Sequence record: PP384396.1
Source: Teseptimavirus T7
Reading direction: 5' to 3' (one strand)
DNA: 36,598 nucleotides
Shown here: positions 18,757 to 20,070 of the stretch, one piece after another
How positions within the stretch are numbered: position 1 is the first letter of the stretch
Layout: every line of letters starts with the position of its first letter
Position numbers and translations under genes: made by a program
Notes under the pieces: generated by a model
What the model was told of the DNA's origin: nothing
Database searches by the model: none
The model's input: only the letters and a program-made list of their open reading frames with translations

Positions 18757-18779
18757 TAATACGACTCACTATAGGGAGA
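18757..18779 (+). promoter_or_regulatory. T7 class III promoter phi10 (native copy) with gene 10 leader
   Basis: TAATACGACTCACTATAGGGAGA, +1 at 18774; followed by ccacaacggtttccctctagaaataattttgtttaactttaagaaggagatatacatATG. Confidence 0.95.
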
Positions 18780-18836
18780 CCACAACGGTTTCCCTCTAGA
18801 AATAATTTTGTTTAACTTTAAGAAGGAGATATACAT

Positions 18837-19874
18837 ATGGCTAGCATGACTGGTGGACAGCAAATGGGTACTAACCAAGGTAAAGGTGTAGTTGCTGCTG
18901 GAGATAAACTGGCGTTGTTCTTGAAGGTATTTGGCGGTGAAGTCCTGACTGCGTTCGCTCGTACCTCCGTGACCACTTCTCGCCACATGGTACGTTCCAT
19001 CTCCAGCGGTAAATCCGCTCAGTTCCCTGTTCTGGGTCGCACTCAGGCAGCGTATCTGGCTCCGGGCGAGAACCTCGACGATAAACGTAAGGACATCAAA
19101 CACACCGAGAAGGTAATCACCATTGACGGTCTCCTGACGGCTGACGTTCTGATTTATGATATTGAGGACGCGATGAACCACTACGACGTTCGCTCTGAGT
19201 ATACCTCTCAGTTGGGTGAATCTCTGGCGATGGCTGCGGATGGTGCGGTTCTGGCTGAGATTGCCGGTCTGTGTAACGTGGAAAGCAAATATAATGAGAA
19301 CATCGAGGGCTTAGGTACTGCTACCGTAATTGAGACCACTCAGAACAAGGCCGCACTTACCGACCAAGTTGCGCTGGGTAAGGAGATTATTGCGGCTCTG
19401 ACTAAGGCTCGTGCGGCTCTGACCAAGAACTATGTTCCGGCTGCTGACCGTGTGTTCTACTGTGACCCAGATAGCTACTCTGCGATTCTGGCAGCACTGA
19501 TGCCGAACGCAGCAAACTACGCTGCTCTGATTGACCCTGAGAAGGGTTCTATCCGCAACGTTATGGGCTTTGAGGTTGTAGAAGTTCCGCACCTCACCGC
19601 TGGTGGTGCTGGTACCGCTCGTGAGGGCACTACTGGTCAGAAGCACGTCTTCCCTGCCAATAAAGGTGAGGGTAATGTCAAGGTTGCTAAGGACAACGTT
19701 ATCGGCCTGTTCATGCACCGCTCTGCGGTAGGTACTGTTAAGCTGCGTGACTTGGCTCTGGAGCGCGCTCGCCGTGCTAACTTCCAAGCGGACCAGATTA
19801 TCGCTAAGTACGCAATGGGCCACGGTGGTCTTCGCCCAGAAGCTGCTGGTGCAGTGGTTTTCAAAGTGGAGTAA
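18837..19874 (+). CDS. 10A: Major capsid protein gp10A
   Basis: 345-aa ORF starting [11 protein letters not shown] and ending AGAVVFKVE. Confidence 0.99.
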   Translation: MASMTGGQQMGTNQGKGVVAAGDKLALFLKVFGGEVLTAFARTSVTTSRHMVRSISSGKSAQFPVLGRTQAAYLAPGENLDDKRKDIKHTEKVITIDGLLTADVLIYDIEDAMNHYDVRSEYTSQLGESLAMAADGAVLAEIAGLCNVESKYNENIEGLGTATVIETTQNKAALTDQVALGKEIIAALTKARAALTKNYVPAADRVFYCDPDSYSAILAALMPNAANYAALIDPEKGSIRNVMGFEVVEVPHLTAGGAGTAREGTTGQKHVFPANKGEGNVKVAKDNVIGLFMHRSAVGTVKLRDLALERARRANFQADQIIAKYAMGHGGLRPEAAGAVVFKVE

Positions 19875-20050
19875 TGCTGGGGGTGGCCTCAACGGTCGCT
19901 GCTAGTCCCGAAGAGGCGAGTGTTACTTCAACAGAAGAAACCTTAACGCCAGCACAGGAGGCCGCACGCACCCGCGCTGCTAACAAAGCCCTAATACGAC
20001 TCACTATAGGGAGACCACAACGGTTTCCCTCTAGCAATAATTTTGTTTAA
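18837..20050 (+). CDS. 10B: Minor capsid protein 10B (programmed -1 frameshift product) with C-terminus rewritten by the insertion
   Basis: Slippery region gtggttttcaaag retained at about 19855; the -1 frame after the 10A stop now reads ...AANKA then [19 protein letters not shown] and stops at TAA 20048-20050 inside the inserted promoter/leader, instead of the native ...AANKARKEAELAAATAEQ. Confidence 0.5.
19992..20014 (+). promoter_or_regulatory. Duplicated consensus T7 promoter (engineered second copy of phi10) driving mCherry
   Basis: TAATACGACTCACTATAGGGAGA inserted directly after ...gctaacaaagccc; +1 G at 20009. Confidence 0.95.
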
Positions 20051-20070
20051 CTTTAAGAAGGAGATATACC
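20015..20070 (+). promoter_or_regulatory. Gene-10-type 5' leader / RBS (pET-style) for mCherry
   Basis: ccacaacggtttccctctagCaataattttgtttaactttaagaaggagatatacc + ATGG; SD AAGGAG; differs from the native leader by A to C in TCTAGA and by a CCATGG start context instead of CATATG. Confidence 0.9.

Follow-up and report, generated by a model that had tools for sequence, protein, structure and literature searches.

Provenance of a duplicated phi10 promoter and gene 10 leader flanking the capsid gene of the engineered phage T7-compile

Introduction

The promoter and leader carried by pET and pIVEX expression plasmids were copied from T7's own phi10 promoter and gene 10 leader. Because the plasmid elements are copies of phage elements, placing a plasmid-derived cassette after gene 10 inevitably yields a direct repeat, 78 nt long in the genome described here. 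Deletion between direct repeats in T7 reportedly climbs steeply with repeat length, as Masker-laboratory studies are said to have found from about 1991 onward.

The closest described relative of the locus is the PHEIGES phage T7-compile, deposited under accession PP384396 (Levrier et al., Nat Commun 2024, PMC10933291). According to that paper, it is a one-step union of T7-mini, an mCherry gene placed after gene 10, and a tail-fibre mutation permitting infection of ReLPS hosts.

We analyzed a window of 36,598 nt (the whole stretch of DNA under study; all features below lie on its + strand), in which the phi10 promoter and leader occur twice, on either side of gene 10A. The window shares with T7-compile/T7-mC-g10 (PP384396; siblings PP384393, PP384395, and PP384397) the linkers, the junctions, the clone-specific SNPs, and the cassette, the last of these identical to the siblings over 790/790 nt. 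Measured against the T7 cassette of pET/pIVEX2.3d, the second copy has the same promoter, 5' hairpin, leader, Shine–Dalgarno sequence, and CCATGG start, but reads TCTAGC where the XbaI site of those vectors, TCTAGA, is no longer intact. The duplicated-promoter feature is engineered, published, and deposited, and is in this sense already known. The repeat is very probably a by-product of the published construct with its plasmid-derived promoter, and its one mismatched base was inherited with that promoter, most likely as an XbaI/NheI cloning scar.

Identity of the Genome

A blastn comparison with T7 (V01146) showed the window to be a whole T7 genome that keeps the 160-bp terminal repeat at either end and has three internal deletions and one 790-nt insertion (39,937 − 4130 + 791 = 36,598). 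A synthetic linker of 20 nt closes each deletion: AATGCGTCATTTTACACGGC at 5891–5910 spans the loss of T7 5890–8845 (genes 1.1–1.8), AATATCACGCAAAAGCACCG at 8256–8275 that of about T7 11191–11479 (the gene 3.8 region), and AATGCAAAGCTATTAGCGCG at 10102–10121 that of T7 13305–14250 (genes 4.3–4.7). In the order given, the linkers have the same sequence as the 5' overhangs of the primers T7mini-B-24-s, T7mini-C-21-s, and T7mini-D-23-s listed in PHEIGES Supplementary Data 2 (PMC10933291); the deletions are del2–4 of that paper, each with its own orthogonal 20-nt linker.

The point mutations single out one clone. The set comprising +A at T7 1896, 22629 A>G, 27179 G>A, 36246 T>A, and 36252 A>T equals the ‘T7-compile’ column, and no other, of the published mutation table, and SNPs specific to compile-2 and compile-3 were absent from the window. 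The pair 36246 T>A (S541R) and 36252 A>T (silent) falls in the tail-fibre gene 17 (window 32907–32913) and is given in PMC10933291 as the host-range edit of the T7-compile design, while G780R in gp12 (T7 27179 G>A; window 23840) is listed there solely for the clone ‘T7-compile’. Two changes, +A at T7 1896 (window 1896) and 22629 A>G (gp9 N227S; window 18499), are found in all of this laboratory's genomes, the wild-type stock among them; they are differences between the stock and V01146 and not engineered edits.

Two details depart from the published table. The window carries one extra silent C>T change at 5971 (T7 8906; gene 2 codon 3, AAC>AAT) that is missing from the table. The published entry for the first deletion, 5890–8949, would take in T7 8906; the deletion in the window stops at T7 8845.

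Judged from its primers, linkers, and match to the mutation table, the window is the entire genome of a T7 derivative built in the laboratory, ‘T7-compile’ of the PHEIGES work. The sequence-only reading had recognized the DNA as man-made, with a second promoter copy driving an inserted mCherry, in agreement with the published construct.

Extent and Components of the Repeat

A direct repeat of about 78 bp, comprising the phi10 promoter and leader around gene 10A, had been proposed from the letters alone, with a self-alignment as the way to check it. The self-alignment recovered both the repeat and its mismatch and agrees with the proposal to the base. The copies lie at 18757–18834 and 19992–20069, 1235 nt from start to start, and are identical at 77 of 78 positions; this pair (99% identity) is the one long direct-repeat family found. 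A search with the 78-mer, allowing up to three mismatches, hit exactly these two sites in the window, the expectation from 100 shuffles being zero.

The sole difference, 18800 A versus 20035 C, turns TCTAGA into TCTAGC, as direct reading of the two copies also shows, and leaves perfect-homology blocks of 43 nt and 34 nt. Homology stops sharply, exactly at both ends of the repeat. The left flanks are unlike (GACTTCGAAAT versus AACAAAGCCC), and the right flanks run ...ATAC-ATATGG (native, NdeI type) in one copy and ...ATAC-CATGG (NcoI type) in the other, so that the differing 3' ends described earlier (ATACAT-ATG versus ATACC-ATGG) are seen here as well. With phi10, the five remaining consensus T7 promoters of the window have only the 23-nt core in common.

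Copy 1 is the native element, identical to V01146 22887–22964, where phi10 is annotated at 22904. It consists of the class III promoter phi10 (18757–18779, +1 at 18774), a 21-nt 5' transcript hairpin (18774–18794), the XbaI site TCTAGA (18795–18800), the gene 10 leader segment TTAACTTTA (18812–18820), and the Shine–Dalgarno sequence AAGGAG (18823–18828). Between the two copies lies the essential gene 10A for the major capsid protein (18837–19874), collinear with T7 22967–24004.

Copy 2, a T7 promoter with the gene 10 leader (‘UTR1’) brought in from the plasmid, is 100% identical in the cassettes of PP384393, PP384395, and PP384397. It is laid out as a consensus class III promoter, TAATACGACTCACTATAGGGAGA (19992–20014, +1 at 20009), the gene 10 leader with the same 5' hairpin (20009–20029), the hybrid TCTAGC (20030–20035, mismatch at 20035), a Shine–Dalgarno sequence (20058–20063), and an ATG within an NcoI-type start, CCATGG (20069–20074). 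Its 77/78 identity to V01146 22887–22964 directly shows phi10/gene 10 ancestry. The predicted hairpin (−13.4 kcal/mol, z about −3.7 to −4.4) is alike in both copies, and the A>C mismatch falls outside it.

The layout suggests a division of labor in which copy 1 would provide for the transcription and translation of 10A, and copy 2 would supply mCherry with a second late promoter, a stabilizing 5' hairpin, and a strong ribosome-binding site. Transcripts from both would end at the single native terminator Tphi (20831–20872), located by a terminator scan and the V01146 annotation. A sigma-70 promoter scan of the region gave no match, and an Rfam scan of 18000–21500 yielded nothing beyond an osmY match at chance level, scoring 18.6 bits where the gathering score is 46.9.

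A natural segmental duplication was considered and rejected, the cassette being in no phage record besides the PHEIGES siblings. The hybrid junction likewise gave no match among 185,579 reference genomes or in IMG/VR.

The mCherry Insert and the Altered Gene 10B

The complete insert (19992–20781, 790 nt) sits at T7 coordinate 24121, within the tail of gene 10B; it begins 117 bp 3' of the 10A stop codon and lies upstream of the native Tphi. It encodes a 236-residue mCherry of the ‘mmCherry’ variant (20071–20781), 98.7–98.9% identical to the mCherry of plasmid records. Both junctions correspond to PCR primers: the left one, ...AACAAAGCCC/TAATACGAC..., equals mcherry-tt-s, and the right one, ...GTACAAGTAA/CGAAAGGAAGC..., equals mcherry-tt-as; in longer form they read ...GCTGCTAACAAAGCCC/TAATACGACTC... 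and ...CTGTACAAGTAA/CGAAAGGAAGCTGAG.... In PMC10933291, the template for this primer pair is called plasmid ‘T7p14-Mcherry’, and the template plasmid pTXTL-T7p14-mmCherry is identified as Arbor 502141. The mCherry cassette of T7-compile was PCR-amplified from this commercial plasmid, with its pIVEX2.3d/pET-type backbone, and insertion into the dispensable 10B tail puts a second phi10 and leader 1235 bp after the first. In the sibling PP384393, the cassette is surrounded by pIVEX2.3d backbone sequence together with a His-tag multiple cloning site and the terminator region.

Native T7 sequence leading up to Tphi begins right after the mCherry stop codon, which accounts for the single Tphi in the window (given more narrowly as 20831–20866), common to gene 10 and the mCherry cassette. 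The cassette is described as including a T7 terminator in PMC10933291; in the window this terminator is the shared native Tphi, used instead of the terminator copy of the pET/pIVEX2.3d cassette, which was left out. Between 10A and mCherry no terminator was found (19992–20872); mCherry should therefore also be reached by read-through of transcripts that start at phi10, phi9, and further promoters upstream. In turn, an extra promoter upstream of Tphi should raise read-through into genes 11–12.

Insertion also rewrites the end of the gene 10B reading frame. The gene 10B extension in the −1 frame (19856–20050) runs into the inserted promoter and leader, and on translation 19 new residues would replace the native gp10B C-terminus ...AANKA-RKEAELAAATAEQ*. 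This altered tail receives no mention in the available portions of PMC10933291.

Some further properties of the insert may be recorded here. Codons 6–7 of mCherry (20086–20091) read GAA GAA where GAG GAG is usual, which abolishes a Shine–Dalgarno-like GGAGGA upstream of Met10 (ATG at 20098–20100). The name ‘mmCherry’ probably refers to suppression of a short internal-start isoform through these codons; a literature search on ‘mmCherry’ returned users of the reporter and no definition of the modification. The insert also brings two NcoI sites and the genome's sole PstI site (20069, 20422, and 20504), which are handy for cassette diagnosis.

Origin of the Single-Base Difference

Since it removes exactly one restriction site, the mismatch had been taken for a design feature of the phage, perhaps serving to keep an XbaI site unique or to distinguish the copies. 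The primers and the sibling genomes point elsewhere. The annealing part of mcherry-tt-s is TAATACGACTCACTATAGGGAGACCACAACGG only and ends ...CCACAACGG, 12 nt upstream of the C. As the sense primer stops short of it, the C came with the template plasmid and was not introduced for this phage. The cassette is identical at 790/790 nt in PP384393, PP384395, and PP384397, where it lies after gene 10, gene 17, and gene 1, respectively; these sibling cassettes were made with another primer pair, annealing ~230 bp upstream in the vector, and serve as a proxy for the plasmid sequence.

What the plasmid's C represents can be read from the hexamer around it. TCTAGC at 20030–20035 consists of the T of an XbaI half-site and the CTAGC of an NheI site, with neither TCTAGA nor GCTAGC present there. 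An XbaI end (T^CTAGA) ligated to an NheI end (G^CTAGC) gives TCTAGC, which neither enzyme cuts. Both parental sites occur at the homologous position in oligonucleotides of the same laboratory: XbaI in T7p14-UTR1, CCCTCTAGAAATAATTTTG (TCTAGA; longer, ...TTTCCCTCTAGAAATAATTTTG...), and NheI in P70a-UTR1, GCAGCTAGCAATAATTTTG (GCTAGC; longer, ...GGTTGCAGCTAGCAATAATTTTG...). Compared with the Noireaux-lab pBEST/P70a ‘UTR1’ leader (NheI-UTR1-NcoI), copy 2 is identical, CTAGCAATAATTTTGTTTAACTTTAAGAAGGAG..., from the NheI half-site on; the upstream half belongs here to the T7-promoter side (...CCCT), whereas P70a has ...GCAG, and the junction of the two halves is the hybrid TCTAGC. A p70a-mmCherry plasmid exists in the literature, and in the plasmid-derived flank of PP384393 the mCherry stop codon is followed at once by an XhoI site; together, these fit an NheI–XhoI UTR1-mmCherry fragment moved into an XbaI–XhoI-cut T7 vector. 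Out of the 234 single substitutions possible in 78 nt, the observed A>C is exactly the one that XbaI/NheI joining predicts. The C would then be the scar left where an XbaI-cut T7-promoter vector met an NheI-ended UTR1-mCherry fragment of the laboratory's P70a/pBEST series, and the ATACC-ATGG ending would be the NcoI version of the leader, the native one being the NdeI-type ATACAT-ATG. Taken alone, we infer this cloning history to be likely, though held less firmly than the plasmid-borne origin of the repeat as a whole. A full-text literature search for the hybrid junction returned no paper, nor was a description of the construction of pTXTL-T7p14-mmCherry found; one further article working with T7p14 plasmids gives no sequence for them.

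The main alternative to a cloning scar is a deliberate knockout by the plasmid's makers, who might have removed the XbaI site while building the plasmid (e.g., by gene synthesis or mutagenesis, so that XbaI could serve in other cloning steps), the phage inheriting the change passively. It would explain why A>C destroys exactly one hexamer site and why every one of the four phage genomes has the C in its plasmid-derived cassette. However, any of 18 substitutions would have served that end, and the one observed is precisely the NheI-side base; moreover, the GCTAGC at the homologous position of the same laboratory's P70a-UTR1 and the XhoI site after the stop codon are as an NheI–XhoI fragment swap would give, and the literature found, in its available portions, mentions no such design. 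We therefore regard a deliberate knockout as unlikely. Design at the level of the phage is far less probable still. Such a design would have the mismatch provide a unique XbaI site, tell the copies apart, or lessen recombination, with the placement chosen for capsid-selected stability; XbaI digestion or sequencing does distinguish the copies, and the repeat-mediated deletion, as simulated, is lethal. Against it stand the primer, which does not cover the mismatch, and the same C in cassettes located after gene 1 or gene 17. TCTAGA, in addition, occurs three times in the window (9627, 18795, and 30955, the three wild-type T7 sites), which refutes the idea that the change keeps XbaI unique, and one mismatch still leaves two long blocks of perfect homology. 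A deletion would also lose 10A and keep mCherry, so that mCherry is not what the arrangement protects, and the authors are silent on repeats or stability in the available portions of PMC10933291. Least probable of all, to the point of being negligible, is a spontaneous mutation, PCR error, or sequencing error in copy 2: the difference is a single base, PCR-based assembly gives occasional errors, and the sibling clones show several unique SNPs in the mutation table, yet the C is identical in four independently assembled genomes, which excludes an error of this kind. The XbaI/NheI scar, carried in by the plasmid, remains the preferred reading of the mismatch.

Recombination between the Copies

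The prediction that recombination between the copies would delete gene 10A was borne out by simulation. A crossover anywhere within the repeat shortens the genome by 1235 bp to 35,363 bp, fusing phi10 and its leader to mCherry and eliminating 10A; depending on the crossover point, the product has A or C at the XbaI position. The reciprocal product carries a tandem 10A duplication in 37,833 bp and, being smaller than wild-type T7, should be packageable.

Selection for the capsid was also supposed to stabilize the cassette, which is imprecise. Because the deletion product has lost the capsid gene while keeping mCherry, it is non-viable unless complemented and is purged; by the same token, mCherry is retained on deletion and is neither threatened nor protected by the repeat. 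As the only long repeat flanks an essential gene, no viable mCherry-less revertants arise from it. Nothing suggests that the arrangement was chosen to prevent such revertants, and the available portions of PMC10933291 make no mention of repeats, recombination, or stability in general. The longest homology flanking mCherry is 8 nt, AGCAATAA at 20033–20040 and 20816–20823. A viable mCherry deletion would most readily arise through this match, yet it is no more than chance gives (~0.3 expected). The microhomology itself arises through the A>C change.

A sibling genome shows that repeat-mediated deletion does take place in this system. In the g10-o design, a 105-bp Tphi region was to occur twice at a spacing of 202 bp, with the oho2 linker between the copies. 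In the deposited PP384393 (T7_mCg10o; compared region 2007–3217), oho2 is missing, a single Tphi remains, and the length falls short of the design by exactly 202 bp; oho2 is kept in the g1-o and g17-o siblings. Since the shortfall equals the spacing of the repeat, the 105-bp Tphi repeat has collapsed, during either in vitro annealing/assembly or growth. The phi10 repeat around 10A persisted in the same PP384393 genome that lost the Tphi repeat. Compared with repeat-mediated deletion as described for T7, the difference is that the interval here holds an essential gene, so that the deletion product cannot propagate alone.

A more active role for the repeat may also be envisaged. The 1,235-bp repeat-bounded unit could behave as a recombination-active module in which unequal crossing-over makes 35.4-kb 10A-deleted and 37.8-kb 10A-duplicated genomes that together contribute to the slower lysis reported for T7-compile, or to capsid-gene amplification. 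We consider this unlikely. Were it true, the 35.4-kb mCherry-only defective genome could gain ground as a cheater when the multiplicity of infection is high, and the 37.8-kb tandem 10A duplication would be packageable only owing to the shortened genome. Both products may then add measurably to the slower lysis, or ease amplification of the capsid gene.

Implications

The relevance of the repeat is mainly one of housekeeping, and it opens no biological question. For users of the reporter phage, it is of practical note that a gp10B tail of 19 residues is now encoded by the promoter and leader. The window is synthetic, and its duplicated promoter, 20-nt linkers, foreign ORF, and altered 10B tail are not to be taken as natural biology of T7.
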